64,000 nt of DNA, from positions 22,661-86,660 of the forward strand of contig CAYVLY010000002.1 of assembly GCA_964452565.1 (NCBI GenBank), read 5' to 3'. The notes beneath the pieces are model-generated. The model worked only from the letters and a program-made list of their open reading frames with translations, searched no databases and was not told the DNA's origin. Of the stretch, positions 20,494-44,572 are shown in pieces. The translations under genes were made by a program, and so were the position numbers. The stretch comes from an uncultured Gammaproteobacteria bacterium. GTDB lineage: Bacteria; Patescibacteriota; Patescibacteriia; UBA9934. Position 1 is the stretch's first letter. Each line of letters starts with the position of its first letter.

Positions 20494-20573
20494 TTTAAGA
20501 ATAAAAGACCTGAGCTATTGCTCAGGACGCGTTTGCCACCCAAGTGCCAATAGAGGGGTGGGCTTTTTGTAGT

Positions 20574-21098
20574 TCACTGATTGTTGATCTTCTGACGAAC
20601 CGCCTCCATGGCCGCATTGCTCAGGTAGGTATTGAGCTTGAGGCCCAGCTTGGCCAGCGCAACGCGGATCTCCCCCACATCCCCATGGGACACATCTGGG
20701 TACTTCATCAGATCGACTTCGCGTCTCAGGATGACCAGCTGCCAGGTGTGGGTGATCGAAGTGTGGGCTGAACGTGACTGGCATGCTGTCAATGCTTTGA
20801 GGACACGGGTTTGCAGACCCAGATCTCCGATCGGCTTGGCCAGGTTGGCGACGGTCTCGTTGTCGGGATCCACAATCTGTGTTCTCCCAAAACCCCCTAG
20901 GATCACCTGATACATATCCATGGCAACCTTGTCGCCTTCCCCCAGAAACACGATCGAGTGGACAGATCTCTCCAGCAGAGCAAGGGCAACTGGATCCTCA
21001 AGGTTGAGATGCACAGTGCCGCCGTGATTGCGCCCTGCTTCCGCAGTTGAAAAACGAATGTTGCCGAGCCTGGGTACAGACCCCATGAAAACCTCCAT
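20574..21098 (-). CDS. hypothetical protein in high-GC island (function unknown)
   Basis: Longest ORF in a ~0.9-kb stretch whose GC content (~58 %) far exceeds flanking DNA; overlapping shorter ORFs on both strands considered spurious. Confidence 0.35.
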   Translation of the reverse strand: MEVFMGSVPRLGNIRFSTAEAGRNHGGTVHLNLEDPVALALLERSVHSIVFLGEGDKVAMDMYQVILGGFGRTQIVDPDNETVANLAKPIGDLGLQTRVLKALTACQSRSAHTSITHTWQLVILRREVDLMKYPDVSHGDVGEIRVALAKLGLKLNTYLSNAAMEAVRQKINNQ

Positions 21099-21388
21099 TG
21101 CCAGCTAACCAAGGCTGACCGGGTCGGGTATCGACGCCTCATATTAGCACAAGATCACTGCTGTGTCAATGGTAAGCCAAATAACCCACATTTTCCCTAA
21201 CACAGGGCGCGAATCTACGCTATAATGTAGCCATGGCGTTTAATGCCACGCAAACTGCAAATGCAATGGCCCGCACGCAGTTAAATAAAGAAAAGACTGC
21301 TGCACGCCGGGCAAGAACAGTAATCCCTCGTGCCAGTAGGGCTACTTTGCCTTCTAGAAAAAAACGTCGCTCCCGATCGCAAGTAAAC

Positions 21389-22270
21389 ATGTCAGCAGAG
21401 GATCCCTTCTCAGGAATGCCCCAAGAAAATCCTGAGTTAATACCAGATGGACTTCCCGGAGAACATAGAGCTGTCAATGTGATCTATCACACCGTGAGCG
21501 CAGAGGTTCGGAAAGAGTTAGAAGCCCAAGCGCGTACCAGACTTATGGCTGAACGCCAAAGAATCCGCGCTGAGATGAAATCATACCAGTTGCCTGAAAT
21601 GAAGACTGGTGGATACGAGGAGCCTGGACAGCTTGATGACATGAAAACCGCATACGAAGATGAATTCAAAAAACAAGTTCAAACTCCTGAGTTCATGAAG
21701 GCAGCCAAAGAAAAGACTGAGGGCATATACAGTAAAATGGATGCACAGCTGCGAAATAAAAAACTGAAAAAGGGAGCAAAGGCAGCTGGAAAGAAAGCTC
21801 AAGAAGCAGCTGATAAAGCTAAAAAAGTCGGCCAGGCAGGTCAAGCTGCAGGGAAACTTGGTTGGGATGCAGAGAATGCTATCAGTCTTCTTGACACAGC
21901 TGAACCAGCAGACCTTGAGATTCCGACTATCTTCACTGTAATGGTGCAGATGTACAGGGCTTGTACAGCACTATTTAATAACGGTGAGAAAATTATAAAA
22001 GGATTCCTGGGATTTCTAGAACCTACCCCGCTTTTTAGATTCTGGCATCCAAAGGATATACAAAGGGCGATTGATGAAAGCATTGATGATCCCTTGTTGG
22101 GTGGTGGTACCGAGCTGGAGAATACCATCGAATCGTTCTGTCTTGGATGGCCTGAAGCAATTATCGGATGGTTTGTGGTTGGAGTTTCAATCCTTCTAAT
22201 CGCTGGGGCAGCTATCTTCTTATTCGTTGTGGTTATGCTAGCAATAGCAACCATTGGAGCAATATTATAA
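21389..22270 (+). CDS. hypothetical protein: coiled-coil/Lys-rich region plus C-terminal double TM (start probably ATG 21389 rather than 21233)
   Basis: First gene of tight 5-gene plus-strand block; 5' 150 nt of listed ORF lies in the GC-rich island. Confidence 0.45.
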   Translation: MSAEDPFSGMPQENPELIPDGLPGEHRAVNVIYHTVSAEVRKELEAQARTRLMAERQRIRAEMKSYQLPEMKTGGYEEPGQLDDMKTAYEDEFKKQVQTPEFMKAAKEKTEGIYSKMDAQLRNKKLKKGAKAAGKKAQEAADKAKKVGQAGQAAGKLGWDAENAISLLDTAEPADLEIPTIFTVMVQMYRACTALFNNGEKIIKGFLGFLEPTPLFRFWHPKDIQRAIDESIDDPLLGGGTELENTIESFCLGWPEAIIGWFVVGVSILLIAGAAIFLFVVVMLAIATIGAIL

Positions 22271-22276
22271 CGTCAT

Positions 22277-23494
22277 ATGTTGGACATGCTTACATACAAT
22301 CAAAAACGCTTACTCGGAGTCTTTGCCCTCCTGATCTCAACTGTGGCCATCGGCCTATTCCTTTTCTGGCTTTTCACAGCGCCGCCAATAATTGTTGAGG
22401 AAGAAGAGGTCATTATTGAAGAGGAAGAGCCAATAGGTGTGCTTACTGGAGCCGAAGAGGCGGAGGAACTCGTCGCTATCGAAGAAGAGGAGGAAGTTGG
22501 TCTACCAACCGCAATCGCAGTAGGCGTTGAAACATTTACACAGCAGCTAACATCTTCTGCTGTAATGTCCCCTACCATGATAGACGGGACAGGAATTGCG
22601 TTTTACAACCCACTTGATGGAAGATTCTACATGATTGATGACAGCGGTGAACTGATTGCCATGTCTTTGGAGCAATTTCCTGATGCAGAGACTGTTGTGT
22701 TTGCAGATACTGCAGATGTTGCTGCTATTGAATTTCCTGATGGAAGCAACATCATCTACGATTTTGAAACAGAAACACAAACCACCCTACCAAGTCACTG
22801 GGAAGACTTTGATTTCTCTTCGGACGGAGAAGAGGTCGCATCAAAGAGCATTAGCTCTGACCCTACGCAAAACTCACTAGTTGTAACATCAACCGATGGA
22901 TCAAAGACCGAGGTACTCACAGCGCTTGGTTCAAATGACGATAAAGTAACGGTTAACTGGTCAACTAATAATAACGTTGTTGGGTTCTCGGAAACTGGAG
23001 GAACCTCGCTGGGCTTTGGTCGTTATGAAATATATGTTATTGGAAGCGATGGACAGGAGTCTGGGAATTTGATTGTGGAAGGTGGGAACTTCTCTGCGAT
23101 TTGGTCACCAAGTAGCTCAAAGATTCTCTACTCTGTTGCATGGACTGCAAATGATGAACGCCCTTCTCTTTGGATAGTGGACGGAACAGGCGACATTGGA
23201 TCTAGTCGTGAAAACCTTGGAGTTGAGACTTGGGTGGAGAAATGCACATTCAAAAGTGACTCTGTGATCATCTGTGCAGTTCCAGATGAGGTCACTAGTG
23301 GCTCTGGCTTGGATCATAGGCTAATTGATTCGACCGACTCACTTTACGAAATCAACATAACTACTGGTTCGAAAAAGCTATTAGGATATCCCGTACTTGA
23401 TATGGAAATATCCAATCTGTACGTAAGTGATGACAACTCGATTCTATACTTTACAGATGAATACGGTCGACTTAACTACATGCGACTAGAATAA
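22277..23494 (+). CDS. membrane-anchored TolB-like/WD40-like beta-propeller protein
   Basis: N-terminal TM, poly-Glu linker, then repeated ...S.DG..I..S....G...I... blades (SDGEEVASKS, STDGSK, GSDGQESGNL, VDGTGDIG, SDDNSILYFTDEYG). Confidence 0.55.
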   Translation: MLDMLTYNQKRLLGVFALLISTVAIGLFLFWLFTAPPIIVEEEEVIIEEEEPIGVLTGAEEAEELVAIEEEEEVGLPTAIAVGVETFTQQLTSSAVMSPTMIDGTGIAFYNPLDGRFYMIDDSGELIAMSLEQFPDAETVVFADTADVAAIEFPDGSNIIYDFETETQTTLPSHWEDFDFSSDGEEVASKSISSDPTQNSLVVTSTDGSKTEVLTALGSNDDKVTVNWSTNNNVVGFSETGGTSLGFGRYEIYVIGSDGQESGNLIVEGGNFSAIWSPSSSKILYSVAWTANDERPSLWIVDGTGDIGSSRENLGVETWVEKCTFKSDSVIICAVPDEVTSGSGLDHRLIDSTDSLYEINITTGSKKLLGYPVLDMEISNLYVSDDNSILYFTDEYGRLNYMRLE

Positions 23495-23495
23495 T

Positions 23496-24140
23496 ATGAC
23501 CCAAGCAAAAAAAATCGTTACCATCTTCTCCGTACTCTTTGGAATAGTTTTTTTCGCAATGCTACTCTCATTTATTCCAGGAGATAGAATTGAGTTTACA
23601 AACCTCCCAACAGATGAGGATAGTGAACTAACCATAGATGACCGTGATCCGATTTATGGTAGCAACAATCCTGATGTATTGATTTATCATTTTGGAGATT
23701 TTTCAAACTCATCAAGTGCTGAAGTGGCAGAGTCATTAAAGAATATCGCAGATTCAACAGACAATGTGACAATAGTTTGGAAGGACTTTCCTAATACAAG
23801 CCTTGATCCAGAATCATGGAACGCATCGATTGCAGCCAGGTGTGCACAAAAACAGGATGCATTTTGGGAATTCCATGACTATCTATTTGTATACCCAAAC
23901 CAACTGTCAAATGAGCTTTATGGTGACATTGCCACTGAGCTTGGGCTATGGCAATGGTCATTTAATCGATGTTTAAGTGGTGAAAAAACTACTGACTGGG
24001 TTGAAGATAGTTACAATCAAGGTATGGATCTTTCATTAACTGCAGCGCCAACGCTATTCATCAACAGCCAACCCTATGCTGGCTATATGAGCCAATCTGA
24101 TATCGAATCTATTATTGACTCTATTCTGCTTGGGCTTTAA
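23496..24140 (+). CDS. DsbA/BdbD-family thioredoxin-fold protein with degenerate active site
   Basis: N-terminal TM; DsbA-like ...DVLIYHFGDF-SNSS-SAE... where CPxC is replaced by SNSS; conserved downstream AARCAQKQDAFWEFHDYLF helix. Confidence 0.55.
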   Translation: MTQAKKIVTIFSVLFGIVFFAMLLSFIPGDRIEFTNLPTDEDSELTIDDRDPIYGSNNPDVLIYHFGDFSNSSSAEVAESLKNIADSTDNVTIVWKDFPNTSLDPESWNASIAARCAQKQDAFWEFHDYLFVYPNQLSNELYGDIATELGLWQWSFNRCLSGEKTTDWVEDSYNQGMDLSLTAAPTLFINSQPYAGYMSQSDIESIIDSILLGL

Positions 24141-24149
24141 GACGAACAT

Positions 24150-25502
24150 ATGAGGAAATTATTTCTAGCACTTCTTCTTCTACTTACACTGCCTTTACCA
24201 GTGCTTGCTGAGGACTATGAGGATTGTGATGAGGGAACAGCCGAATGCTCATGCCCGCAAGTGGATGCCTCTGGTGTAGACCAAGATGCCGTTACTTCGA
24301 TTGAGGGATGCCAGGAAGCATGTACTGCACTCGAGCCTTACGGTGAAGAGGTCTTTGGCGCGGAGATAACAAGCTATTCAGTTCAGTGCGAGATAGACGG
24401 AGTTGTTACAACTATTGGACAAGGAGCACTAACCTCAGACGAGGAGCTTATAACAATAACCACAACCGATCCGATTGCACCCGAGCTTAGTGTTGAAATC
24501 CCTGGATTGGAATTTGAGGACCCTATAGTCGTCGATGGATTTGTTGAATACAATCTTGTGGGACTCTATATTGAAGCTATGTACAAATGGGTTCTCGGTG
24601 CAGCATCTTTGTTAGCTATAGTAATGCTGATGCTTGGAGGTCTACAGTACATGCTTGCTCGTGGTAAACCCGAAGGGATTGGAAAAGCCAAAAAACGCAT
24701 CAGAAACTCGATCACTGGAATAGTACTGCTGTTTGCAGCGTTCTCTATTGCATATATGGTAGACCCTGGGAGTACGACTTTTGACAGCCTCAAAGTTACA
24801 GATCTTGAACCACTAGCCTTTGACTTCCCAAATGAAACTCCGCTAGACTTCCCTGCGGTAAGCTCATATGCACTTTCAAGTACTGCAGCAGAAGGTGGAA
24901 TTGGATGGGATGATGTTGTTATATATGATCAAAAAGCATGGCCTGATGTAGCATATGGTGAGGATGAATGTTTAACGTCATCAACTGGTAGTATTATGTC
25001 ATCTGGTTGCGGAGTTGCATCTTTTGCAATGGTTGCATCTACTATTTTGGGAGAGAGTGTTGATCCACCCTATGTTGCTGGATACTGGAAACAAGCAGGG
25101 TCATGTGAAGATGTGGGGATCGAAGGATACAGTGATAAATGCAGAGCCTGTCCAGACTCAAACGTATGCGATGGTTGTAATGGAACTTTTGGAAGCGCAA
25201 TGACACATTCAGAGCTCACACAAGCATTAGGAATCGAGGGGAGCCCAATCGGAACAGATGGATATACACTATCATCAGATGACATGTCTGATATGTATGA
25301 TAAGCTGGCCTCGGGTGACTATCTAGTAATAAGCTCTTACACAACATCATCAGGCGGTGGTCACTTTGTAGTCCTGGTTGGGGTAGATTCTGATGGAAAC
25401 TTTATGATAAACAATCCATACGGAGCAATCATGGAAACTCGTGATCCTGAAACATACTACAGTACGATGAAATCTGGATATATATTTGAAAGATACCAAT
25501 AG
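24150..25502 (+). CDS. secreted protein: signal peptide, Cys-rich N-domain, VirB2/TrbC-like two-helix membrane hairpin, C-terminal papain-like (C39/CHAP-type) Cys/His domain
   Basis: MRKLFLALLLLLTLPLPVLA signal; WVLGAASLLAIVMLMLGG-loop(KPEGIGKAKKRIRNS)-ITGIVLLFAAFSIAYMV; catalytic-type SSGCGVASFAMV and GGGHFVVLVGVDSDGNFMINNPYG. Confidence 0.5.
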   Translation: MRKLFLALLLLLTLPLPVLAEDYEDCDEGTAECSCPQVDASGVDQDAVTSIEGCQEACTALEPYGEEVFGAEITSYSVQCEIDGVVTTIGQGALTSDEELITITTTDPIAPELSVEIPGLEFEDPIVVDGFVEYNLVGLYIEAMYKWVLGAASLLAIVMLMLGGLQYMLARGKPEGIGKAKKRIRNSITGIVLLFAAFSIAYMVDPGSTTFDSLKVTDLEPLAFDFPNETPLDFPAVSSYALSSTAAEGGIGWDDVVIYDQKAWPDVAYGEDECLTSSTGSIMSSGCGVASFAMVASTILGESVDPPYVAGYWKQAGSCEDVGIEGYSDKCRACPDSNVCDGCNGTFGSAMTHSELTQALGIEGSPIGTDGYTLSSDDMSDMYDKLASGDYLVISSYTTSSGGGHFVVLVGVDSDGNFMINNPYGAIMETRDPETYYSTMKSGYIFERYQ

Positions 25503-25505
25503 TCT

Positions 25506-26795
25506 ATGCACAACTGTTCACACTGCGATTCGCAATTTTCAAAATGGCAGGGACGATGCACAGAATGTGGAAAATGGGGGACGATTTCTGAAGGGCAAAC
25601 ATCGCAAAGTAAAACAACTAAATCAAAAGGAGGCGCCGCACCGGCGCCGACTTTGTCTCTTGTAGATGCTGCTACTCACAATGTAAAGCATATATCAACA
25701 AATGTTGGTGAGCTTGATCGAGTTCTCTCCGGTGGACTTGTTCCCGGGTCTGTAACCCTTTTGGCTGGTGAGCCTGGTATTGGAAAGTCGACTCTAGTAG
25801 CGCAGATCGCTTACTTATTTTCATCAAAGCAGCCAGCTTACTATGTTTCAGGTGAAGAATCTCAGGGTCAGGTCGCAATGCGAATGCAGCGCCTCAAGAT
25901 TGATCCGAAAAATATAAACTTTTCAAATAGCGTCGAAGTTGATGCGATAATTAGTGCCGCACGGAAACTTAACCCATCTCTTATAATCATAGATTCGATA
26001 CAGACAATGATCGCAGCAGAGATAGATAATCTTCCCGGTACACCAACAGCGGTAAGGGCAGCAACAGCGCAATTGATCGGGTATTCAAAAGAATCCAATG
26101 TTCCGGTTTTGATTATTGGTCAGATGACTAAGGATGGGTCTGTTGCAGGTCCAAAAACACTTGAACACCTAGTTGACACAGTGCTGACGCTCGAAGGTGA
26201 CCAACAAAGTGCTTATCGGCTTTTGCGTGCTGGGAAGAATCGATTTGGCACAACAGATGAAGTTGGGATCTTTGAAATGTTGCAAACAGGGCTCCAGGGT
26301 GTTGAAAATCCTTCAGCTCGATTCCTGGAAGAACGCACACAAAACCCAGGATCAGCAGTAACTTGCATCATGGAAGGAACGCGGCCCATATTAGTTGAGG
26401 TTCAAGCTCTAGCTGAAAAAAGCTTTTTTGCTAATCCAATCCGCCGAACATCAGGCTATGATGGTTCAAGACTACAGATGCTACTTGCGATCATAGGACG
26501 CCGCGCAGGAGTGGCTGTCTCTGGATTTGATGTATATGTAAATGTAGTTGGTGGAATGAAAATCAAAGAACCTGCTGCTGATTTGGCGATCTGTGCCGCA
26601 ATCATCTCATCGATAAAAGACAAAGCTCTGCCTCAGGATTCGATAGTGTTCGGTGAGCTAGGCTTAAGCGGTGAAGTTAGATCAGTTCCCTTTTTGGAAA
26701 GACGCATCAAAGAGGCTGAGCGCCTGGGATTCTCCAAAGTCCTCTCTCCCAAAACAACAAAACAAATTTCAGAACTAAAAAACAGCCTTTCGTAA
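25506..26795 (+). CDS. radA: DNA repair protein RadA/Sms
   Basis: N-terminal C4 zinc finger CSHCDSQFSKWQGRCTECGKW, RecA-like Walker A GEPGIGKST, KNRFG motif, Lon-like C-domain. Confidence 0.9.
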   Translation: MHNCSHCDSQFSKWQGRCTECGKWGTISEGQTSQSKTTKSKGGAAPAPTLSLVDAATHNVKHISTNVGELDRVLSGGLVPGSVTLLAGEPGIGKSTLVAQIAYLFSSKQPAYYVSGEESQGQVAMRMQRLKIDPKNINFSNSVEVDAIISAARKLNPSLIIIDSIQTMIAAEIDNLPGTPTAVRAATAQLIGYSKESNVPVLIIGQMTKDGSVAGPKTLEHLVDTVLTLEGDQQSAYRLLRAGKNRFGTTDEVGIFEMLQTGLQGVENPSARFLEERTQNPGSAVTCIMEGTRPILVEVQALAEKSFFANPIRRTSGYDGSRLQMLLAIIGRRAGVAVSGFDVYVNVVGGMKIKEPAADLAICAAIISSIKDKALPQDSIVFGELGLSGEVRSVPFLERRIKEAERLGFSKVLSPKTTKQISELKNSLS

Positions 26796-26816: not shown

Positions 26817-28916
26817 CTACTCAAAATGAATCTCTTCGATATACTCCTGGACACGGTCGCGAAGTGAGGGCCAAGGATCTAAGTCTGGGCTCTCGTCAAG
26901 AATCTCTTTTGCATAATCGCGCGCAGCTGTGATCAAATCCATATCCGCATAGCTACCAAGCTTGAACTGCTCAAAGCCTGACTGGGTTGTGCCAAAAATA
27001 TTACCACCACCGCGAAGTTTCAAATCCTTATCTGCTAGTTTAAATCCATCATGCGACTCGACCACTGCTAATAGCCGCTCCTTAGCAAGCGGTGTTAGCC
27101 TTTCAGATGGATGCAAAAAACAATAACTTTGGTATTCATCACGCCCAACACGTCCTCGCAGCTGATGCAGCTGAGCCAACCCAAACCGCTCTGCCCCTTC
27201 AATAAACATCACTGTCGCATTCGGAATATCCACTCCAACCTCTACAACAGTAGTTGCGACCAACACATTAATTTCGTTGTTCAAAAACGATCGCATTACA
27301 TCATCCTTCTCCTCAGTTTTCATCTTACCGTGCAACATACCCACTGAATAATTCTTAAACGGCCCCTTTTTATACTTATCATGGATCTCATTCACAGACT
27401 TTACTCCGAGTGCATCAGACTCTTCAATGAGCGGGCACACTACAAATACTTGATGGCCGGCCTCAATCTGATCACGCATCTTTTGATAATAAGTACGCTC
27501 CTTGCCAGGGTGTACAATGTGGGTCTCGATGATCTTACGGCCTGCTGGATATTCATCCAGAATCGAGCAATCAAGATCCCCATACAAAACCAATGACAAC
27601 GATCGCGGAATCGGAGTCGCAGTCATCGATAATAAATGCGGGATGCCGTCCTTATCGCCTTGACGGTCCTTGAGCGCCTGACGTTGTTTAACCCCAAAGC
27701 GATGCTGCTCATCAACAATGATGAATCCCAGACGATTGAAAAGCACATTGTCTGACAAGAGCGCGTGGGTTCCAATAACAAAATCGATCTTGCCGTTTTT
27801 CAGAGCATCAAGCATTTGCTTCTTTGTGACCTTTTTCCCAGACACCCAACGTTTTGTGCGCGTAAACAAAGCAATGGTCAGCTTATCGCCAAACATTTCC
27901 TCCAAACCGTTTGCATGTTGTTCTGCAAGGATCTCTGTCGGAGCCAGAAGCGCTGACTGCCAACTTGCTTTAGCTGTGTTGATCGCAGCCAAAGCAGCTA
28001 CGATTGTCTTACCTGTTCCAACATCACCCTCAAGCAACCTATTCATTGGCTCTTCACGCTCCATATCCTTATAGATTGCAAACAAAGACTTCTTTTGCGC
28101 CCCAGTAAGCTCGAACGGGAGTTCACTAACAACTTTCTTAATATAGCTCTCATCAAACTTAACAGCTGATGCTTTCTTTTTCTTTAGCTCCCTTCGAGCC
28201 TTGCCGTGCAAAATCTGGTGTAGAAAAAACTCATCAAACTTCAGTCTTCGAAGGGCTTTTTCCTGTGTCGCAGTCGTATTTGGGAAATGCATGGCCCGCA
28301 TGGCTGTATGTAGATCGATAAACTTTTCTTGGTCGATAATGTCAGATGGTAGATAATCGACAACTTCATCATCGATCGACTTGAGAGCCTCTTCGGTCAC
28401 CAGGCGTCGAACCTTTTGAGTCAAACCTCCGCATAATCGATAGATTGGAACTATGCGACCAGTGTGCATAGTCTTGCGTGAGTTTCCTACAATCTCATAA
28501 GTCGGGTTCACAAGAGAGAGTCCGTACTTATCATCGATCTTTCCTGAAAGTGAAACGTTCGTACCTGTTCGAAGAGTCTTAGTAAGAAATCCTTGATGAA
28601 ACCAGATTACTTTTATCGCCCCTGTTCCATCCTGCACAATCGCCTCAGTTACAACCATACGACGATTCTTATTGCTGCGACGATTTGTGATACTCGCAAT
28701 CGTACCGCCGATAGTCACCTTCTGGCCTGGCCTTACATCAGAGATTTCGAGCTTATTAGAAAGATCATCATATCGGAATGGAAAATCATACAGAGCATCG
28801 TGCAAGGTTTTAACATTCATGCGCGAAAAATCCCGGGCCTTAACCTGCCCGATTCCCTTCACGTAACGAACTTCTTTATCTAAATTCATAACTTTAGCTT
28901 CATATAAGTGTAGCAA
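26817..28916 (-). CDS. recG: ATP-dependent DNA helicase RecG
   Basis: wedge/OB N-domain, helicase motifs GDVGTGKT, DEQHRFG, C-terminal helicase domain; 699 aa. Confidence 0.9.
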   Translation of the reverse strand: MLHLYEAKVMNLDKEVRYVKGIGQVKARDFSRMNVKTLHDALYDFPFRYDDLSNKLEISDVRPGQKVTIGGTIASITNRRSNKNRRMVVTEAIVQDGTGAIKVIWFHQGFLTKTLRTGTNVSLSGKIDDKYGLSLVNPTYEIVGNSRKTMHTGRIVPIYRLCGGLTQKVRRLVTEEALKSIDDEVVDYLPSDIIDQEKFIDLHTAMRAMHFPNTTATQEKALRRLKFDEFFLHQILHGKARRELKKKKASAVKFDESYIKKVVSELPFELTGAQKKSLFAIYKDMEREEPMNRLLEGDVGTGKTIVAALAAINTAKASWQSALLAPTEILAEQHANGLEEMFGDKLTIALFTRTKRWVSGKKVTKKQMLDALKNGKIDFVIGTHALLSDNVLFNRLGFIIVDEQHRFGVKQRQALKDRQGDKDGIPHLLSMTATPIPRSLSLVLYGDLDCSILDEYPAGRKIIETHIVHPGKERTYYQKMRDQIEAGHQVFVVCPLIEESDALGVKSVNEIHDKYKKGPFKNYSVGMLHGKMKTEEKDDVMRSFLNNEINVLVATTVVEVGVDIPNATVMFIEGAERFGLAQLHQLRGRVGRDEYQSYCFLHPSERLTPLAKERLLAVVESHDGFKLADKDLKLRGGGNIFGTTQSGFEQFKLGSYADMDLITAARDYAKEILDESPDLDPWPSLRDRVQEYIEEIHFE

Positions 28917-32780: not shown

Positions 32781-33437
32781 CTACCCCTTAGCCAATGTGT
32801 ACTTCCAAATTTGATCAATGCCTGCGTTTTGAAGAACTTGAGCTGCGGCATTGATGGTAGCGCCAGTGGTCCAGACATCGTCGATGAGGAGTATCGAATT
32901 CAGTGTATCCTTCGGCTGGGCCTCAGGATGACAAATGAATGGGCTTTTTTTCATCGACTCAATGCGCTCGTGAACTTCGCGCTCGGTTTGGTGGCCGGTT
33001 GATCGTACGCGTTTGATTAGATTGACGACTGGTATATCAAGTTCCTCGGAAACAAACTCAGCTATCATTGCAGCTTGATCAAAACCACGCTTACAGCATC
33101 TTACCGAATGGAGTGGCACGGGCACTACCGCCTCGATCGAATGAATATGAACCAAATGCCTGAGTCCGATTAATGAGGACTGAAGTTTTAATCTAATGAT
33201 CTTCCAGGCGCTTTGATCAAAGTGATACTTCCATGAACATATTAATTGACGAACGATTGGATCGGCATACTGCCATGAATGCATATGTTGATCCTTGTCG
33301 ATAATTTGAAGCTTGCCTGGCTGCCAATATACAAAACACTCTTCACACAGCAGCGAACCTTCTTTGTTGCATTGAATACAAAAACGCGGGAAAACCGCGT
33401 CCTTGATTGTTTTTTTGATCTTATCGAATATCTTCAT
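32781..33437 (-). CDS. comFC: ComF family protein (double zinc ribbon + PRTase domain); listed ORF extends to 33536
   Basis: CIQCNKEGSLLCEEC zinc ribbon, PRTase motif ILLIDDVWTTGATINAA. Confidence 0.7.
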   Translation of the reverse strand: MKIFDKIKKTIKDAVFPRFCIQCNKEGSLLCEECFVYWQPGKLQIIDKDQHMHSWQYADPIVRQLICSWKYHFDQSAWKIIRLKLQSSLIGLRHLVHIHSIEAVVPVPLHSVRCCKRGFDQAAMIAEFVSEELDIPVVNLIKRVRSTGHQTEREVHERIESMKKSPFICHPEAQPKDTLNSILLIDDVWTTGATINAAAQVLQNAGIDQIWKYTLAKG

Positions 33438-33490
33438 ATACTCGTCATTCTGAGGCCTATGGCCGAAGAATCTACTCATCTCGAGTGGAT

Positions 33491-33514
33491 CCTTCGCTGC
33501 GCTCAGGATGACAC
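33491..33514. repeat. copy B of short dispersed repeat (ccttcgctgcgctcaggatgacac)
   Basis: see 3203-3225. Confidence 0.45.
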
Positions 33515-34056
33515 TAGTCCACCCATTCAAAATCATCTACAAGCCACTCCTCGCCTTCTTTGACAAGTGTGACTTCTATGGTTTGATACTTAACTGATGT
33601 GTTTTCTGGACTCTCGATTGACTCCTCACGCTGTGTTAAGACTTCTAGAACTTCTTGCGTATCAGAGACTTCTATCTGAGTAATCGATATAACATAGGTT
33701 GATACTCCATAGTAAACAGCATTACCATCACCTGATGCATCTTCTGCTAAATCTTCTAACCTACTTTGCAATGAACTAGTGGCAATGTCCATCACAGCAT
33801 CCACATTCTCGTAATCACCGTGGTTTGAAAAGCTTCCAAACCTCTCAACAAACACTCGGGCAATGGTTGAAGCATCTTCCTCATAGCCATCTAGGTCCAG
33901 TGGCTCAATAGATTCAAAATCCTGCATTTGACCATCATCTGTAAACGACCCTTGGTCATTCACTGGCTCTGGTCTTAATAACCACCAAACTACTCCAACC
34001 AACAAGATGATTAGTATGATTGCAAACAGTATTTCAAACTTGCGTTTTCTTTCCAT
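33514..34056 (-). CDS. membrane-anchored acidic protein, last gene of T4SS-like operon (possible VirB8-like)
   Basis: N-terminal TM then 150-aa periplasmic-type domain; positional analogy only. Confidence 0.35.
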   Translation of the reverse strand: MERKRKFEILFAIILIILLVGVVWWLLRPEPVNDQGSFTDDGQMQDFESIEPLDLDGYEEDASTIARVFVERFGSFSNHGDYENVDAVMDIATSSLQSRLEDLAEDASGDGNAVYYGVSTYVISITQIEVSDTQEVLEVLTQREESIESPENTSVKYQTIEVTLVKEGEEWLVDDFEWVD

Positions 34057-34058
34057 AA

Positions 34059-35999
34059 TTATTCACTTTTAGGTTGTTCGGGTTTTTCAGTTGGAGCACT
34101 AAATGACTCTTCAAACTCTTTTCGCGCACGCTCGATCTCTAGGAGTTGCTCTGGATTTGTAGTAATTAGCTGATCCTCATTATATGAAGCAACGACTTTG
34201 ACTGCTGCGTGCTTAGCACCTGCAAAGAAAATCCCTTCTCCAATGGCAGCTTCGAGCAATAAATACCGCTCGCTTTGAGTTAGGTTAAATGTCTCCGCGA
34301 TGATATCGATTCCTGCTGGAGACTGTTTCATCAAAAGCTGCAAAGCTGAGTTTGTAACAATCGCCTGGCCATAGGCACTTCGCAAAAAGTCATTCACATC
34401 CTGAGTAATTGTTGTAACTCCCAAGAAGTACTTTCGCGCACGCTTTACTAGAGCAAAGATGAACTTTGCAGAATCCTCATGCGTCATTAGCCACCAAGCC
34501 TCATCAATTGCCAGTATTCTCTTCTTTCGAACCGAACGCACAACATTCCAAATGTAGTTAACAATCGTATAGATTGCCATTGGCCGTAGCTCGTCCTCAA
34601 GATCACGAACAGAGAAGATAACAAGCTGATTGTCCATCTCTACAGTTGTAGGTGAATTCAAAAGACCAGCAAATGTTCCTTCTGTGTACTTTCTAAGTCG
34701 ATCGACAAGGTCGCCAGATCCTTCCATTCCTTCTAGAATCTCCTGCAAATCCTGCAAAATAGGATATTCAACTCCGTCTAAATTTGTAAGGTCAGGTGTT
34801 ATATCCTTTTTTGCATATGCTTCTAGGATTGCTCTATCAAGCATTGAATCCTCTGCTGGTGTGAACCCCATCTTTCCAGCTGCTCCGATTGGTTGACCCA
34901 TCATGATCCGCAAGAGACCTTTGATTGTGATAACAGCGCTTCGTAAGATATCTTCAACAGAAGCTTCATCACCAACAGCACGAGGTAGATCAAACGGATT
35001 AATCTTACTTTCTGAAGCCAATGACACATTGATATATGTTCCTCCCACAGCATCTGACAACGTCTTGTATTCCATCTCAGGGTCAATGACGATCACATCA
35101 GTTCCCATCATCATTGAACGCAAAATCTCAAGCTTAATTGCATAACTTTTTCCAGCACCAGATGTAGCGAATACAACAGCGTTTGCGTTTTGCAATGAAA
35201 ACCTATCAAACAAAATCAACGAGTTGTTATGACGATTGATTCCATACAGAATTCCCTTATCGCTTGTAAGATCTGATGATATGAATGGGAATGAAGAAGC
35301 AATCGGCGATGTGCTCATGTTAAATGTAATCATGAGCTCGTCATTACCAAGTGGAATCGTTGAGTTAAATCCTTGTTCAGCTTGGTAGAAACCTCGTTTT
35401 GTGTAAATCAGCTTTGAACCAAGAATTGATTCAAGTTGACTTGTGCGCTTATCAAGCTCCTCCTTGTCATTAGCATAAATCGTAATGTAAAACGCAAACT
35501 GGAAAAAGTGCTCAATTCCCTGCGTAAGATCATCGCGCAATTGCTCAACATCACGCAGAGCAGTCTCGCGGATTGGATCACGCGGCGCTCCTTTTTCATT
35601 ATCTGACACAATCTGTGCCTCCAAAACTCCAGTCTTATCTCGCAACTGCTTCAGAATCACCTCAGATGGAATTGGATAGAAAAACATCCCAATGTCGAGC
35701 GTTCCACTGTAGTTAATAACTGGCGCACCCCATCCAATAGTCACATATCGCGGATAGGTCACGATGAAAAGTGTTCGAACAAATGTGTCACCAATCTTTA
35801 AAAAGTCTGGATTCACCTGGAATGATGCAGGTGCAATAAGATCGCGGACTGTAACAGTCCCACGTCGATACACATACTCTTCTTCAAGCGTCTTTTTTTC
35901 CTGCAAAGCCTTTTCCTGATCAGGTGTAAGTTTTTTTGGCTTTTCTGCCTTTTTATCAGGCGTTTGGGCTTGCTTTAGTTGTTCTAACTCAATTGACAT
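34059..35999 (-). CDS. VirB4/TrbE/CagE-family type IV secretion ATPase, C-terminal (NTPase) portion
   Basis: Walker A ATSGAGKSYAIK, Walker B-like VIVIDPE, conserved ...ILAIDEAW... region; 646 aa. Confidence 0.8.
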   Translation of the reverse strand: MSIELEQLKQAQTPDKKAEKPKKLTPDQEKALQEKKTLEEEYVYRRGTVTVRDLIAPASFQVNPDFLKIGDTFVRTLFIVTYPRYVTIGWGAPVINYSGTLDIGMFFYPIPSEVILKQLRDKTGVLEAQIVSDNEKGAPRDPIRETALRDVEQLRDDLTQGIEHFFQFAFYITIYANDKEELDKRTSQLESILGSKLIYTKRGFYQAEQGFNSTIPLGNDELMITFNMSTSPIASSFPFISSDLTSDKGILYGINRHNNSLILFDRFSLQNANAVVFATSGAGKSYAIKLEILRSMMMGTDVIVIDPEMEYKTLSDAVGGTYINVSLASESKINPFDLPRAVGDEASVEDILRSAVITIKGLLRIMMGQPIGAAGKMGFTPAEDSMLDRAILEAYAKKDITPDLTNLDGVEYPILQDLQEILEGMEGSGDLVDRLRKYTEGTFAGLLNSPTTVEMDNQLVIFSVRDLEDELRPMAIYTIVNYIWNVVRSVRKKRILAIDEAWWLMTHEDSAKFIFALVKRARKYFLGVTTITQDVNDFLRSAYGQAIVTNSALQLLMKQSPAGIDIIAETFNLTQSERYLLLEAAIGEGIFFAGAKHAAVKVVASYNEDQLITTNPEQLLEIERARKEFEESFSAPTEKPEQPKSE

Positions 36000-36008
36000 A
36001 AGTAACGA

Positions 36009-36716
36009 TTAAAATCCTTCTTCGACCCTTAACTCGTTAAGAGGCGCGAGTCGTTGCGTATCAAATACGTCTGGATTATAAACTGTGTAAAAAAGTTCAA
36101 TAAGGCCTTGGGTATCAAGCATAGCGCTCTGTAGTCCCATTCCAACAAGCCCACCCTGAATAATGTTCATCCGTCCCATTAGTGAATCTCTGCGTTCCTT
36201 AAATTTCTTTTCATTCAGCTTTACAACAGAAGCTGGCATGATTGCTGCTGAAAGCTTTGTCATAAATCCCTTTTTCTTATCTGTTGCGGGATCATAAGGA
36301 ACAACAACATAGAACTTCTTCTGCATAATCTCTCCCAATTCAACAAGTTCATTCACAAATCCACGATAATCAATAATCTGTGTTCTCAAAAGATCGTTCT
36401 TTATAGTTCTCTCCTGCTCCTTAAGTGCCTCCATGTATGCATCAATGTTCATCTTTCTTGACTGAACAACAACCTGGATCGGATATTCAAGTCCGTTTAA
36501 GAACTGCATATATGACTGCACTGTTGCTTGTTGCTCGTCTTCTGACTTAAGTGCAAAGTTTATACTTGAAACCATGAAAACACCCCTCAAAGTTCCATCT
36601 TTTAGCACAACTGCATCTTCGCGGATCTCAGCAATGTCCAAAAATCTCTGAGTTGGTGGCCCTGGCTTTGCCTTGGCTAATTTTTTTGATTGCATTTCTT
36701 CCTGCTTTTTTTGCAT
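36009..36716 (-). CDS. VirB4-family N-terminal domain encoded as separate ORF (same frame as 34059..35999, interrupted by in-frame TAA)
   Basis: ...FLDIAEIREDAVVLKDGTLRGVFMVSSINFALKSEDEQQATVQSYMQFLNGLEYPIQVVVQSR... resembles N-terminal region of Gram-positive VirB4 homologues. Confidence 0.55.
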   Translation of the reverse strand: MQKKQEEMQSKKLAKAKPGPPTQRFLDIAEIREDAVVLKDGTLRGVFMVSSINFALKSEDEQQATVQSYMQFLNGLEYPIQVVVQSRKMNIDAYMEALKEQERTIKNDLLRTQIIDYRGFVNELVELGEIMQKKFYVVVPYDPATDKKKGFMTKLSAAIMPASVVKLNEKKFKERRDSLMGRMNIIQGGLVGMGLQSAMLDTQGLIELFYTVYNPDVFDTQRLAPLNELRVEEGF

Positions 36717-36719: not shown

Positions 36720-37157
36720 CTAATCTTTTTCTGGATTATAAACTCCGCCTGTATTTACTACTAAGGCGATATCAGATAGCCGAGATCTCTCTAGCGGTCT
36801 CTTCTTTGGGGTGGGTGGGACTGGCTTTTCTTCTTCTTTCTTTAGCCCTTCTCTCAGCTGTGAATCGGAGAGTGCCTTATCCCAGACACGAACCATTGGC
36901 CTCCTCAAGGTCTGTATCATGCTAAGAACCACGTAGTGAAACGCTTGGCCGTTAACCTTCGCAAAGGCAAAAGTGACTCCAATCGCCAAGATTGGAATTC
37001 CGATTCCGACTACTGCGAAGATGTTCAAGAATATCCGATATACTAAAAAGTCTGCTAAAATCGTTCCCAACATTATCAAAAACTGACGCAGTGTAACTGG
37101 CCCTATAATCTTTGTCTCAACGTCTAGAAATTGTGGTACAACAAATTGTTCCGGCAT
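36720..37157 (-). CDS. small two-TM membrane protein, VirB3/PrgI-like candidate
   Basis: VPQFLDVETKIIGPVTLRQFLIMLG... then two hydrophobic helices; immediately upstream of VirB4 as in Gram-positive T4SS. Confidence 0.45.
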   Translation of the reverse strand: MPEQFVVPQFLDVETKIIGPVTLRQFLIMLGTILADFLVYRIFLNIFAVVGIGIPILAIGVTFAFAKVNGQAFHYVVLSMIQTLRRPMVRVWDKALSDSQLREGLKKEEEKPVPPTPKKRPLERSRLSDIALVVNTGGVYNPEKD

Positions 37158-39069: not shown

Positions 39070-41742
39070 TTACATTTCTCTACGTGCAAGATCCATCTGT
39101 CTTGCCATATTATTTAATTCACGGTTGGTCACTGTACGATCGGCTGCGGGTCTATTTCCTTCTGCCGCTACTGCAGAACGCATTTGATCAACAATATTTC
39201 GCACATTGTCTCTATCAGCATCGGTTTGCGCCGCATTGTACTGCTGTAGCAGTCTATCAACATCTTGACGACTGTATGATTCAGTAACTGCCCTGGTCAC
39301 ATCATTACCTGCCCCTGCATTAACTGCATTTTGAATATGATTTTGGAAATTGACAATAACATCTGGGTTACCTCGTGATGCCTCACGCAATGTTGCCGTA
39401 GCATTGGCATCCATTGAACCATCCGCAGCCACTTGTATTACATCTGTTGCAGCTTCTCCAGACCTTAGACGTGCTGTGTCATACATACGCCTATCATTTA
39501 CGCTGGCTGCAGCGGTACTAAGATCTCGCAATGCAGCCTGAATGTTAGCCTGAGCCGCAGCGTCAATGCCTTCCATATTATGTCCGCCACGTGCAAGCCC
39601 ATTAGCAACTTCTTGCGCACGTGCAGGGTCTGCAACATGATCTGCAGTAATATTCCCAGCATCAACCACACCAGCTCGCACTGCCTCAGCGATTTGATCA
39701 GCAGATGCCTGATCCAGGTTTACATCACCAGTAAATCCAGTAAGTGCCGCGTTCTTAACTTCATCTTTAACACCACGACCAGCCTTAAGCTGATCAAGCA
39801 TGTTCTCCGTGCGCTGCGATCCATCCGGGGCAGTCCATGAACGAACTGTTTTATTCTCAAGCGCCTGTCGAATTTCTGGATCTGCAATATCATCTGCTGA
39901 GAGTTGATTCACCTTAAAGTCGCTATCGGAGACAATATCGTTGAGCTCTTTCTGAGTATCAAAATTGGGATCTGCTGCGACCTTACCATCAATCCATTCA
40001 CGCAAGTTTCCAGCCTTTGTCTTCTTGAAATCCTTTTTCTGCTTGTCATCCGTGAGCAACTCATTTTTGTTCTTGTCAACATGCTGCATAGAAGCTCGCA
40101 TGAATTGCTTGTATGCATCTGGATCCATGTCCTTCTTGAGTTTCTTTCTAAAAGTAGAATCTGTTGTAGCGTCAAGCATAAGAGCTTCTTGCCTTCTTTG
40201 CTCCGATAGAGTCATTGCTTGAGGTTTTCCAGTTCTTGGATCAACCTGCACAGAACCAGCTCTTGCTACACGCTCCTCTATTGTCATTCCCTGAACCTCC
40301 TCACGTGCCTTTTCGCGACCTGCAATATCTGGAGCTGCAGCACCACGTCTCACAGCGCCTGCTGCTCCCATAACACGCGTTCCAACAGCACGGCCAATAA
40401 AGCCACCCCTTTCCGCCATTGCCTGTCCAGCACCCATTAAACCTTTGCTAAGCTTCTGACCAACTCCGAACCTTCCCTCGATCTGTCTTCCAGCCTGCTT
40501 TCCGGTCCATCTAGCTCCTCGATATGCAGTAGAGGCCGGTAGAGTAAGTGCACTTTTTACCATCTTCTTTCCAACGTCTTCGGTTACAAGCTTTCCTGCA
40601 ATATTTCCAAGTTGCTGCGCTGCAGAGCTGGCAACTTTAAATCCAGTCATGATGAGAATCAGGGCGATACCCAAACTTACAAGCTTTTCTGATAGGAAAA
40701 TCTCAGCTAATAGCGTAGGGATATCCTCAGTTCCTTCAAAGTCCAATCCCTCAGATACGGCAATTGGACCTGCTGAGGCCGCTGCCAGACCAAGCCATAG
40801 GAAAAAGGTTAGAATCGGGCCAAGTGTCAAAGCTGCTGTAAACATGTTCCACCACTCCTTATAGCGACCGCCAGCTTCACCAAACAATTGTGTAATACCT
40901 CCCAAGAAAAATGCAATTGGTGACAGGATCACTAGCACCCAGAGAACAATGATTCGATATAAATAAACAACTGCCAATATGATAAGTACTCCTAGGACAA
41001 CCAAGAGCAGCGACAAAACAACAAAGAATTCCGCAAACATTGTATAGAGTTCAACCCCTGTTTGACCTAGAGCTGTTTGGGTGTCCCCCATCACTACAAA
41101 ATCATTGAGCTGGAACAAGCTCATAAAGTTACCGGCAGCTATATCACGCAAAGCATTCACAAAAGTGAACATGATTACCTGCGAAACATCGATCATGATA
41201 AGACAAATCGTTCGACTAAAGTTTACAAGAACAACAGCTGTGAAGAATCGGGGTAGTTGAGCTTCCCACTGGGCCTTTGAGTATCCAATGATTGTCTGCA
41301 GTGCGATAACCAATAGCACAACAATTACAAACATGTTTACAACATCTCTAACTAGCGGCCATCCAATGTCAATTATTGCGCTGTCACCAAAGTTGTTATA
41401 ACCAAGAATCGGGATGATTAATGCACCTAAGACCATTACAATCAGTTTTCCAACGACTGAGAGTAAAACAGCTAGCATTTGGGCTAGTAGTCCAAGAACA
41501 GCCTCAAACAGTGTTGATAGTGAGCTGGAGAGTATATCATCCAGATCTGACGCAAAGGCCACGCTTGGCAGTGATGCCAAAACTACGAAAATAAACGCAA
41601 AAAATACAATGCCCGATCTGTGTATTGTTACCCATTTACACAGTTGCAATGCACCCAATTTTATTTTTTCCATACTGTGAGTATTATAGCACGGCAGAGT
41701 CGTTTTTTTGAGTGTACTTTGTTGGTTTGAGGATAAAAACAT
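39070..41742 (-). CDS. VirB6/TrbL-like polytopic membrane protein with long hydrophilic C-terminal extension
   Basis: Signal/TM at N-terminus (start may be internal Met), ~8 hydrophobic helices over first 380 aa, then 500-aa Ala/Asp/Arg-rich domain. Confidence 0.5.
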   Translation of the reverse strand: MFLSSNQQSTLKKTTLPCYNTHSMEKIKLGALQLCKWVTIHRSGIVFFAFIFVVLASLPSVAFASDLDDILSSSLSTLFEAVLGLLAQMLAVLLSVVGKLIVMVLGALIIPILGYNNFGDSAIIDIGWPLVRDVVNMFVIVVLLVIALQTIIGYSKAQWEAQLPRFFTAVVLVNFSRTICLIMIDVSQVIMFTFVNALRDIAAGNFMSLFQLNDFVVMGDTQTALGQTGVELYTMFAEFFVVLSLLLVVLGVLIILAVVYLYRIIVLWVLVILSPIAFFLGGITQLFGEAGGRYKEWWNMFTAALTLGPILTFFLWLGLAAASAGPIAVSEGLDFEGTEDIPTLLAEIFLSEKLVSLGIALILIMTGFKVASSAAQQLGNIAGKLVTEDVGKKMVKSALTLPASTAYRGARWTGKQAGRQIEGRFGVGQKLSKGLMGAGQAMAERGGFIGRAVGTRVMGAAGAVRRGAAAPDIAGREKAREEVQGMTIEERVARAGSVQVDPRTGKPQAMTLSEQRRQEALMLDATTDSTFRKKLKKDMDPDAYKQFMRASMQHVDKNKNELLTDDKQKKDFKKTKAGNLREWIDGKVAADPNFDTQKELNDIVSDSDFKVNQLSADDIADPEIRQALENKTVRSWTAPDGSQRTENMLDQLKAGRGVKDEVKNAALTGFTGDVNLDQASADQIAEAVRAGVVDAGNITADHVADPARAQEVANGLARGGHNMEGIDAAAQANIQAALRDLSTAAASVNDRRMYDTARLRSGEAATDVIQVAADGSMDANATATLREASRGNPDVIVNFQNHIQNAVNAGAGNDVTRAVTESYSRQDVDRLLQQYNAAQTDADRDNVRNIVDQMRSAVAAEGNRPAADRTVTNRELNNMARQMDLARREM

Positions 41743-42340: not shown

Positions 42341-42357
42341 ATATCTTTCTTTATTTT

Positions 42358-42369
42358 GGGTCTGACCCC
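42358..42369. repeat. REP-like unit gggtctgacccc within 7-bp-stem hairpin ttttggg..cccaaaa
   Basis: direct repeat of units at 41752-41779. Confidence 0.4.
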
Positions 42370-42426
42370 AAAATATTAGGCATTGATGCGGGCCGTGAGA
42401 CGGCCCGCTACGTACTCGAATACAAG

Positions 42427-44331: not shown

Positions 44332-44411
44332 GGTAACCTCACGTTCTAAGGGATTGTGAGGCGGTGATCCATTATTGGTTGACCGTCTCTGCCTACATAG
44401 GAGTACGTTAT

Positions 44412-44572
44412 GGGACTGTTTCCGAATACTCTTTTGAGAATAAATCTCAGAAATTCGAGCGGATTTCTTCAAAGATTTTTGAAGGAATGCCGGGGCATTA
44501 TTGAAAAAATATTTGAAGAAATATGCCGGATTTATGAGGTTTAGGCCAAAAACGGTATTTGGAAACAGTCCC
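44412..44572. repeat. 17-bp inverted repeat pair (gggactgtttccgaata / tatttggaaacagtccc) enclosing ~127 bp upstream of M23 peptidase gene
   Basis: 16/17 complementary arms at 44412-44428 and 44556-44572. Confidence 0.3.

Follow-up and report, generated by a model that had tools for sequence, protein, structure and literature searches.

The stretch of DNA analysed here, a window of 64,000 nucleotides, is a piece of a Patescibacteria (candidate phyla radiation; CPR) chromosome of the Uhrbacteria or GTDB ABY1 type, and the nearest named homologues of its proteins are found in metagenome-assembled genomes (MAGs) of Candidatus Uhrbacteria. On its forward strand four genes, here called genes 1 to 4, directly precede radA. 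Judged from the sequences, the C-terminal domain of the gene 4 product is a replaceable cassette at this locus, and its interchangeability is the informative feature of the group. We propose, with a probability of roughly 0.45, that gene 4 encodes a hairpin-anchored wall hydrolase which, together with accessory proteins, opens the cell's own wall for the comF/VirB4 DNA-uptake or type IV secretion system (T4SS) machinery. Throughout, L-numbers (e.g. L006, L008) are labels of related loci and P-numbers (e.g. P0002) are labels of proteins of relatives.

The gene 4 product and its exchangeable head

The gene and its parts are as follows:

24150..25502, + strand: gene 4, 450 aa, a hairpin-anchored, disulfide-rich putative peptidoglycan peptidase (PF18895 and PF13529 above their cut-offs)
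24150..24209, + strand: signal peptide MRKLFLALLLLLTLPLPVLA|ED, residues 1-20, read from sequence; hydrophobic segment 1-23
24210..24551, + strand: Cys-rich N-terminal extracytoplasmic domain, residues 21-134 (114 aa, six Cys)
24552..24767, + strand: VirB2/TrbC-like two-helix hairpin, residues 135-206 (PF18895)
24900..25499, + strand: C39_2-type papain-like domain, residues 251-450 (PF13529 and fold matches)
24930..24932, 25008..25010, 25362..25364 and 25410..25412, + strand: predicted catalytic residues Gln261, Cys287, His405 and Asn421, respectively

At the radA-adjacent locus, the head of the hairpin protein is of the C39_2 type in the window, L001, L005b, L011 and L012b, of the M23 type in L005a, L009, L010a, L012a and L021a, of the NlpC/P60 type in L006, L008 and L010b, and of the M15 type (M15_4) in L015-L017, while other loci include Amidase_2 heads; in all, the C-terminal domains at this position fall into at least five unrelated sequence clusters. 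A Pfam scan of 107 representatives that have both the N-domain and the hairpin assigned C39_2 to 17, M23 to 16, NlpC/P60 to 15, VanY to 7, M15_4 to 5, M15 to 4 and SLT to 1, the counts being given per family for assignable representatives only, and the M15-type matches may overlap. The head of P0003 appears VanY-like from its motifs alone, and VanY/M15 heads are Pfam-confirmed in other relatives. All of the replacement heads (NlpC/P60, M23, M15/VanY, Amidase_2 and SLT) are peptidoglycan-hydrolase families. Because hydrolase families replace it at the same position, the C39-like head of the window would be expected to cut the wall and not a leader peptide.

When the DNA of the window is compared with that of L006 and L008, identity is 70-80% in gene 2 and radA and 60-70% across the hairpin, falls to 28-39%, which is unalignable, over positions ~24830-25430, i.e., the cassette, and recovers at radA, with 60-64% in the bin over the gene 4/radA junction and 75-80% from 25583. 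With L006, the closest relative, identity amounts to 88% for radA, 82% for gene 2, 67% for gene 3, 60% for the N-terminal part of gene 4 and 55% for gene 1, and the C-terminal part of gene 4 is unrelated. Tandem hairpin proteins with differing heads are present in L005, L010, L012 and L021. Since such pairs differ in head, the pattern may stem either from the differential loss of old paralogues or from cassette exchange.

In the window, the head matches Peptidase_C39_2 (PF13529) over residues 284-424 with 31.3 bits (cut-off 24). The residues Gln261, Cys287, His405 and Asn421 are 100% conserved in 23 C39_2-type relatives, and because this set is invariant among them the domain looks catalytically competent. 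Every significant PDB fold match of the domain is papain-like, namely the toxin 9l5u, the CdiA-CT toxin 8ssm, AvrPphB, 3k8u and AvrRpt2. The papain-like Cys/His domain described in the initial annotation of this DNA, made without database searches, is thus borne out, both by the Gln-Cys-His-Asn set and by predicted folds that are papain-like only. As to whether it stands closer to C39 or to CHAP, the template modelling (TM) score normalised to the target is 0.64 with the C39 domain of ComA (3k8u) and ~0.30 with Tse1 in a low-confidence model; this places the domain nearer to C39, with the qualification that the partner in the comparison is of the NlpC/P60 type and is not a CHAP structure.

The likeness to C39 raises the question of a processing protease, the head of which would trim the leader from secreted peptides or pilins as classical C39 does. 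The Gln-Cys-His-Asn set would suit such an enzyme, the closest well-aligned solved fold is the C39 peptidase domain of ComA, and weak matches to PF03412 occur in P0005 and P0006, which with P0002 are the orthologues of gene 4; the gene 4 product of the window itself has no PF03412 match at E<=1. The double-glycine leader peptidase C39 is a cytoplasmic N-terminal domain of an ABC exporter. Unlike it, the gene 4 domain has no fusion to an ABC exporter and follows a signal peptide and a hairpin, and because these precede it, it is predicted to lie outside of the membrane. Moreover, no double-glycine peptide genes were seen near gene 4, and what the M23, NlpC/P60, M15, Amidase_2 and SLT replacements have in common is wall cleavage, not leader processing. 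We regard a processing protease as very improbable.

The remaining elements of gene 4 (a signal peptide, a Cys-rich module and a VirB2-like hairpin with a basic loop) were also found as first described. The hairpin matches T4SS_pilin (PF18895) over residues 142-202 with 40.9 bits (cut-off 26.6; E value 2.2e-10). It also resembles NF045849, the Mbov_0395 pilin-like family of a Mycoplasma integrative and conjugative element (ICE), below the cut-off (E value 6e-5), and gene 4 scores 10.8 bits against TrbC (PF04956; cut-off 27.9), to which some relatives match with a best E value of 1.1e-7. The hydrophobic helices at residues 143-170 and 186-206, which in the low-confidence AlphaFold2 (AF2) model span 136-169 and 174-204, enclose the basic loop LARGKPEGIGKAKKRIRNS, with seven Lys/Arg in residues 169-187. 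The positive-inside rule would put this loop in the cytoplasm, so that both large domains are predicted to be outside of the membrane. A linker separates the hairpin from the papain-like domain. In the Cys-rich domain, C33, C35, C54, C58 and C80 are near-invariant in an alignment of 108 representatives; the domain is present in duplicate in L008 and P0003, and it has no match in Pfam or PDB.

T4SS pilins have a mature size of roughly 70-120 aa and no other domains. The gene 4 product is unlike such a small single-domain protein, in that its mature length of ~430 aa includes the 114-aa Cys-rich domain before the hairpin and ~245 aa after it. The fusion of a pilin-like element to an enzyme had been taken for an unusual architecture, but it is the rule in this family and not a one-off: a profile of the N-domain and hairpin, searched against 1.84 billion cluster representatives, gave 250 representatives at E<=1e-30, nearly all of 400-500 aa. 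The corresponding profile of the hairpin gave 41,874 at E<=1e-3. A third word-index homologue search with alignment added just three proteins. PDB sequence searches with the C-domains of gene 4 and P0003, with the N-domain plus hairpin profile and with a gene 1 profile returned nothing significant. In the 64-kb window, no other VirB2-like hairpin was detected by a lineage-specific hidden Markov model (HMM), which very divergent small pilins could escape.

A constant N-terminal delivery or anchor part followed by a variable enzymatic head is also the layout of polymorphic toxins, and gene 4 might therefore be an outward weapon, i.e., a polymorphic lysin displayed on the surface or on a pilus and acting against the wall of a host or neighbour in the manner of a fratricin or effector. 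The freed DNA and nutrients would then be handled by the uptake machinery and RadA, and the head type would vary with the wall chemistry of the cell under attack. In keeping with this, gene 4 outpaces its neighbours in evolution, tandem copies with different heads occur in the four loci named above, and the top PDB fold matches are the toxins 9l5u and CdiA-CT 8ssm, with Tse1 lower (low-confidence model). In a VirB2-type filament, furthermore, both termini face outward. A hairpin in the producer's own membrane would nevertheless restrict the reach of the protein unless it polymerises or is released, and a helical lattice of the VirB2 type may have no room for ~430 residues of additional domains on each subunit. 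Competence-coupled fratricins, e.g. CbpD, provide a precedent (PMC9910801, PMC13192262), but no immunity gene follows gene 4 in the window, where radA begins 3 nt on. In every locus either radA or a second hairpin protein comes directly after the gene 4 counterpart, and no co-varying immunity gene was found. Genes 2 and 3 were considered as immunity genes and rejected, as neither co-varies with the head type. An outward weapon appears unlikely to us, and nothing favours the attack on a host envelope that had initially been suggested over remodelling of the cell's own wall. A variant in which the hairpin proteins are true VirB2-type subunits, placed in or at the tip of a T4SS filament and displaying a wall-cutting head matched to the peptidoglycan of the host, seems to us quite improbable. 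In that case the host wall would be breached, and DNA and nucleotides would be drawn in via comF and the T4SS and handled by RadA and RecG.

The operon and the proposed partners of gene 4

The other members of the group, and the signal in front of it, are:

21197..21226, + strand: promoter-like site CTAACA-18-TATAAT, a consensus match only, 7 nt 5' of the gene 1 ATG
21233..22270, + strand: gene 1, 345 aa, an open reading frame (ORF) with its start set by N-terminal conservation
22277..23494, + strand: gene 2, 405 aa, transmembrane helix, acidic linker and seven-bladed beta-propeller
23496..24140, + strand: gene 3, 214 aa, N-terminal transmembrane anchor and DsbA-like thioredoxin fold
25506..26795, + strand: radA/sms, 429 aa (TIGR00416, 490 bits, cut-off 403; E value 6e-147)

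The five ORFs lie in series on the + strand, and the gaps between them, of 6, 1, 9 and 3 nt, confirm the tight packing noticed at the outset. A terminator-like scan gave a site count not above that of shuffled sequence, and none of the sites lies between the five genes. On these features of the sequence, genes 1 to 4 and radA are read as an operon with radA last. The module had been called fused to radA, which is right for genes that are co-oriented and nearly abutting; there is no protein fusion. Promoter-like sites number 18 in the region versus 14.3 +/- 3.6 in shuffles and are not in excess, and with the site so close to the ATG the gene 1 transcript is possibly leaderless. Apart from three tRNAs, an Rfam scan of the window returned nothing.

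Gene 1 had been given a start at 21389, which is an internal Met; the true start, at 21233, adds 52 residues that are conserved in L006 and L008, and orthologues are called at 342-345 aa. The protein has a basic, coiled, low-complexity N-terminal part of ~300 aa without a signal peptide, followed by a hydrophobic C-terminus of 40-45 aa (residues 302-345), which agrees with its first description as a membrane protein. It is predicted from this to be tail-anchored and mostly cytoplasmic. Gene 1 is fast-evolving (55% identity to L006 versus 82% for gene 2) and has no match in Pfam, NCBIfam, PHROGs or PDB. Between gene 1 and the clpB-like gene, a space of 740 nt is occupied by a GC-rich ORF of 174 aa (20574..21098, - strand). 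This ORF has a promoter-like site of its own (21169..21141) as well as a terminator-like hairpin (20526..20509), and no match for it was found in Pfam, NCBIfam or PHROGs. It looks like a single-gene insertion, because clpB directly precedes gene 1 in L008, L009 and L010. An origin of genes 1 to 4 in defence systems or phages was considered and rejected, PHROGs being without any match.

The gene 2 product is the most conserved of the four encoded upstream of radA, with more than 225 homologues, the best 120 of which have E<=1e-98. These homologues, together with the recurring gene order, show that the ORFs are true genes and did not arise by chance. Its AF2 model (predicted local distance difference test, pLDDT, 89.8) places a transmembrane helix at residues 7-34 and an all-beta propeller at 84-404, with a disordered acidic linker (50-72) between them, in agreement with the anchored propeller that had been read from the sequence, and the propeller is predicted to be extracytoplasmic. 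In Foldseek, the best matches are seven-bladed propellers of WD40, tricorn and oligogalacturonate-lyase proteins, which are functionally diverse. The term TolB-like is therefore acceptable in the loose sense of a propeller. Membership of TolB itself was rejected, as the TIGR02800 score (13.8 bits, cut-off 343) is too low and the model holds only the helix, the linker and the seven-bladed propeller; scans of the window likewise showed neither tol nor pal genes.

The product of gene 3 matches Thioredoxin_4 (PF13462) with 54.7 bits (cut-off 23.2; E value 1.8e-14) and falls just under the cut-off for DSBA (PF01323; 24.9 bits, cut-off 25.6; E value 2e-5). The position of the CxxC motif reads SNSS (residues 70-73, nt 23703..23714), CxxC being absent. 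In syntenic orthologues, the pair Cys116/Cys159 and the Pro of an AAPT motif, at the expected cis-Pro position, are invariant, and CxxC is present in 11 of 14; only the window (SNSS), L006 (ASPS) and L008 (SNQA) have lost it. The loss would thus be recent and confined to the subclade of the window, and would not be a property of the module. The view of gene 3 as a catalytically dead DsbA-fold protein is consequently apt for the window protein and does not extend to the module.

Synteny and the type IV secretion neighbourhood

Beyond radA, on the opposite strand, lie recG and the genes of the T4SS side:

26817..28916, - strand: recG, converging on radA and conserved as its neighbour (Pfam RecG_wedge, DEAD and Helicase_C)
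32781..33536, - strand: comF-like gene (PF00156, E value 9e-7), first gene of the T4SS-side cluster
33514..34056, - strand: 180-aa bitopic membrane protein (p180), one transmembrane segment at residues 4-32
34059..35999, - strand: VirB4-like T4SS ATPase of the CD1110 family (NF045971, 345.5 bits, cut-off 325; PF19044, E value 2.7e-26)
36009..36716, - strand: TrsD-like protein similar to the VirB4 N-terminal part (NF045975, E value 1.4e-8; NF041427 TrsD, E value 4.6e-5; both below cut-off)
36720..37157, - strand: PrgI, VirB3-like (PF12666, 31.8 bits, cut-off 27)
39070..41742, - strand: 890-aa polytopic membrane protein, at least seven hydrophobic segments in residues 37-375, no family match

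The co-occurrence of genes 1 to 4 in relatives, a check proposed with the initial annotation, is essentially complete. The order lemA-htpX-clpB-gene 1-gene 2-gene 3-hairpin protein (one to three copies)-radA, with recG on the opposite strand, was found in every Uhrbacteria-type GTDB species representative located, and the part from gene 2 and gene 3 through the hairpin protein(s) to radA and the opposite recG is present in 36 of the 38 metagenome loci with enough flank. Over all related loci of the Uhrbacteria/ABY1 class, synteny of the five genes extends to more than 100. In L030 (8711..13214), among the most divergent of the syntenic loci, gene 3 is absent and two large hairpin proteins, ~857 and 649 aa from stop to stop with 18 and 15 Cys in their expanded N-terminal parts, precede radA.

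The minus-strand cluster is a monoderm-type T4SS as described for Patescibacteria. Its comF-like product has a zinc ribbon (PF18912) below threshold only (E value 0.0066; 16.7 bits, cut-off 27). The p180 protein, with no significant family match, is a VirB8-like candidate from its position, and its gene co-occurs with comF and VirB4 in relatives. The 890-aa polytopic protein may be an extended VirB6, and a 624-aa protein of the cluster has no family match. With the TrsD-like gene immediately before that of the VirB4 ATPase, this is a split VirB4; the sole PHROGs match of the TrsD-like product is a terminase large subunit family (E value 1.2e-8), probably owing to a shared fold. IS200/Y1-transposase-like ORFs (41792..42577, - strand; 45101..45682, + strand) flank GC-rich patches at 42-44 kb and 46-48 kb (GC 0.51-0.52 versus ~0.43) beside the gene of an M23 protein. 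Farther on, an ORF of 3042 aa (46826..55954, - strand), with only a weak match to CBM_4_9, probably encodes a giant surface protein; next to it comes a 215-aa protein that carries a bacterial TSP3 repeat.

Gene 4 and virB4 are 8.5 kb apart on opposite strands, with radA, recG, tRNAs and metabolic genes between them, and comF, p180 and VirB4 are 4-9 kb off wherever the fetched sequence of a relative extends that far. With synteny extending over the entire region, adjacency by itself counts for little as evidence. The link to uptake or secretion goes beyond adjacency because of three further observations. In a rearranged lineage (L081, L104, L110 and L112), which has no gene 3, gene 4 or radA at this place, comF directly follows gene 2; in L110 and L112, this pair is divergent from the type IV pilus genes PilM and PilB/T2SSE. 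In L081, a DsbA-type thioredoxin stands beside a p180-like gene. Finally, L020, L023 and L024 have pairs of a thioredoxin and a hairpin protein at a second locus as well. The connection with T4SS and DNA-uptake genes that had been suspected from the window is plausible and has gained support from the distance of comF and VirB4 in relatives and from the abutment of gene 2 and comF on rearrangement. In L110 (943..8904), and with the same arrangement in L112, a GH130 phosphorylase comes after the gene 2-comF pair, and thioredoxin, hairpin protein and radA are not nearby.

A PF18895 hairpin protein paralogous to gene 4, of ~500 aa, is encoded in L033 (695..2245), which belongs to the genome of the window, in L034 (10001..11488), and in L019 and L022-L028; in L033 and L034, the loci with annotated flanks, its position is between secG and uvrA. 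Its C-domain, which is conserved, contains 18-20 Cys and matches nothing in Pfam. In L020, L023 and L024, the thioredoxin that precedes the paralogue has a single-Cys CPxS/T motif.

On the reading that we favour, the signal peptide would direct the export of the gene 4 product and the VirB2-like hairpin would keep it in the membrane, with the Cys-rich and papain-like domains outside, where the latter would cleave the peptide part of peptidoglycan. The gene 3 product may be the dedicated DsbA-like folding partner of the family for Cys-rich ectodomains. It would be redox-active in most relatives, and in the subclade of the window, because CxxC is lost, its role would be limited to that of a non-redox chaperone or scaffold. 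On the outside of the membrane, the gene 2 propeller might serve as a platform for docking or regulation, and gene 1 might supply a tail-anchored cytoplasmic partner. The module would open the cell's own wall locally, so that the DNA-uptake or T4SS apparatus, made up of comF, the VirB8-like candidate, VirB4, TrsD, PrgI and the VirB6-like candidate, could assemble or extend. Gene 4 would here take the role of a VirB1-like hydrolase, which the VirB2-like hairpin could dock at the translocon, and co-transcription with radA, together with the neighbouring recG, would tie the expression of the module to the recombination of incoming DNA.

Several observations weigh against this proposal. The full-length AF2 model of gene 4 is poor (pLDDT 49, built on eight sequences) and serves for the fold class only. 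In the literature searched we found no characterised member of Peptidase_C39_2 that cleaves the wall; two endolysin surveys list the family as a catalytic domain on annotation alone. Genes 1 and 2 are without functional annotation, and the roles given to them are therefore guesses. The absence of CxxC in gene 3, while gene 4 retains 13 Cys, is an unexplained contrast. The T4SS side has a candidate hydrolase of its own at its far end, the transmembrane-anchored M23 protein of 715 aa (42427..44574). The paralogous hairpin protein between secG and uvrA is far from any T4SS gene, so that the hairpin by itself is no proof of T4SS membership. Moreover, because synteny across the clade covers everything from pheST to recG, the adjacency of radA and the T4SS may largely be inherited order.

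The last three of these points would also suit a module for general wall maintenance or division, in which tethered autolysins are helped by genes 2 and 3, the hairpin is a common CPR anchor and the gene order is merely inherited. The block lemA-htpX-clpB-genes 1 to 4-radA-recG is conserved whole amid the housekeeping genes pheST, rseP, murI and glmM, and the hairpin is very common, as its 41,874 representatives attest. Housekeeping autolysins, however, seldom change their catalytic class where the neighbouring genes are 82-88% identical. On the break of synteny, gene 2 travels with comF, next to type IV pilus genes; the hairpin family is counted as T4SS VirB2 in CPR bacteria and is often near virB4 (PMC12102498); and the Mycoplasma ICE pilin-like family that the hairpin matches is partnered with the VirB4 family of that ICE. 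We consider such a maintenance module somewhat unlikely.

Comparison with known systems

Patescibacteria rely on other cells, and in one tested case the T4SS and the predicted pilins were essential (PMC10633639, PMC12102498, PMC12857230). The T4SS-comF-recG-radA neighbourhood is already published: T4SS loci of the ABY1 class commonly contain comF, recG and radA, whereas VirB1 homologues are rarely near virB4 in CPR bacteria (PMC12102498). That report makes no mention of thioredoxin, NlpC, M23, C39 or pilin fusions. The parts of the module are likewise all of known kinds, i.e., a VirB2-like hairpin, papain-like, M23 and NlpC/P60 hydrolases, a DsbA fold, a propeller and RadA. In the literature searched, no description was found of three things: a large family in which a hairpin of the pilin type and a Cys-rich domain are joined to an interchangeable wall-hydrolase head, its constant association with a DsbA-like protein and a membrane-tethered propeller, and its operon arrangement with radA.

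In Gram-positive T4SSs, VirB1-like hydrolases combine LytM, SLT and CHAP modules (PMC12857230), and their presumed task is to make a passage through the wall for the secretion channel (PMC12857230, PMC12102498). As is predicted for gene 4, PrgK of pCF10, TraG of pIP501 and Orf14 of Tn916 are membrane-anchored, extracytoplasmic and modular, and these MPF_FATA hydrolases draw on a domain pool in common with the hairpin family (LytM/M23, CHAP or NlpC/P60, and SLT). The T4SS of the window is of the same monoderm type as MPF_FATA, with a VirB4 of the CD1110 family, PrgI and TrsD. The anchor differs, being in gene 4 a VirB2-like hairpin after a cleaved signal peptide and a Cys-rich domain, and in the VirB1-like proteins a single N-terminal transmembrane helix. 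Gene 4 has one C39_2-type peptidase domain and no glycosidase domain; it is located 8.5 kb from virB4, on the other strand and in an operon with radA, and its catalytic domain is exchanged among close relatives.

With the VirB2/TrbC pilins and the PF18895 arrays of Southlakia and TM7x, gene 4 shares its signal peptide and a pair of hydrophobic helices joined by a short basic loop. The arrays of CPR bacteria, which are essential, are classed as VirB2 (PMC10633639, PMC12102498, PMC12857230). Gene 4 departs from such pilins in the size of its mature product and in the folded domains that flank the hairpin, and there is no array by virB4. TraF and TrbB of the F plasmid, with which gene 3 may be compared, are thioredoxin-fold accessory proteins of a T4SS that has Cys-rich components. 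TraF has no CXXC and acts in pilus extension, and TrbB has CXXC (PMC11315126); gene 3 of the window subclade is likewise without the motif, which most of its orthologues have. Gene 3 differs from both in that it belongs to the DsbA-like Thioredoxin_4 family, is anchored by a transmembrane segment and comes from a monoderm, and the likeness does not derive from sequence comparison. In F-like systems a non-redox TraF on its own has not been observed (PMC11315126), whereas gene 3 is the only thioredoxin seen in the window.

Streptococcal LytF, CbpD and ScrM are wall hydrolases expressed with DNA-uptake genes, which may be compared with the location of gene 4 near comF and together with radA in an operon; the competence-induced LytF promotes pilus extrusion (PMC13192262). 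These enzymes are secreted and bind the wall through choline-binding, Bsp or SH3b modules, whereas gene 4 is predicted to be anchored by its hairpin, and its co-position with uptake functions is known from the genes alone. The uptake machine near gene 4 is a T4SS and not solely a type IV pilus. Polymorphic toxins and the X-Tfe effectors of Xanthomonas resemble the gene 4 family in having a constant N-terminal part, exchangeable wall-degrading C-terminal domains and an association with T4SSs (PMC6536674). Gene 4 has in contrast neither an adjacent immunity gene nor a signal of the XVIPCD type, and it is predicted to be anchored in the membrane of its producer.

The locus is a candidate for the VirB1-type hydrolase that is mostly missing near virB4, and it belongs to a family of at least 250 cluster representatives. 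If the link to the T4SS is true, the passage of these monoderm machines through the wall would be explained, and the ABY1-class T4SS would be tied to DNA uptake. The head type would then be a readable marker, possibly for the wall chemistry of the organism or for that of its host. Moreover, the counts of PF18895 as VirB2 pilins in CPR surveys take in enzymes of 400-500 aa besides small pilins.

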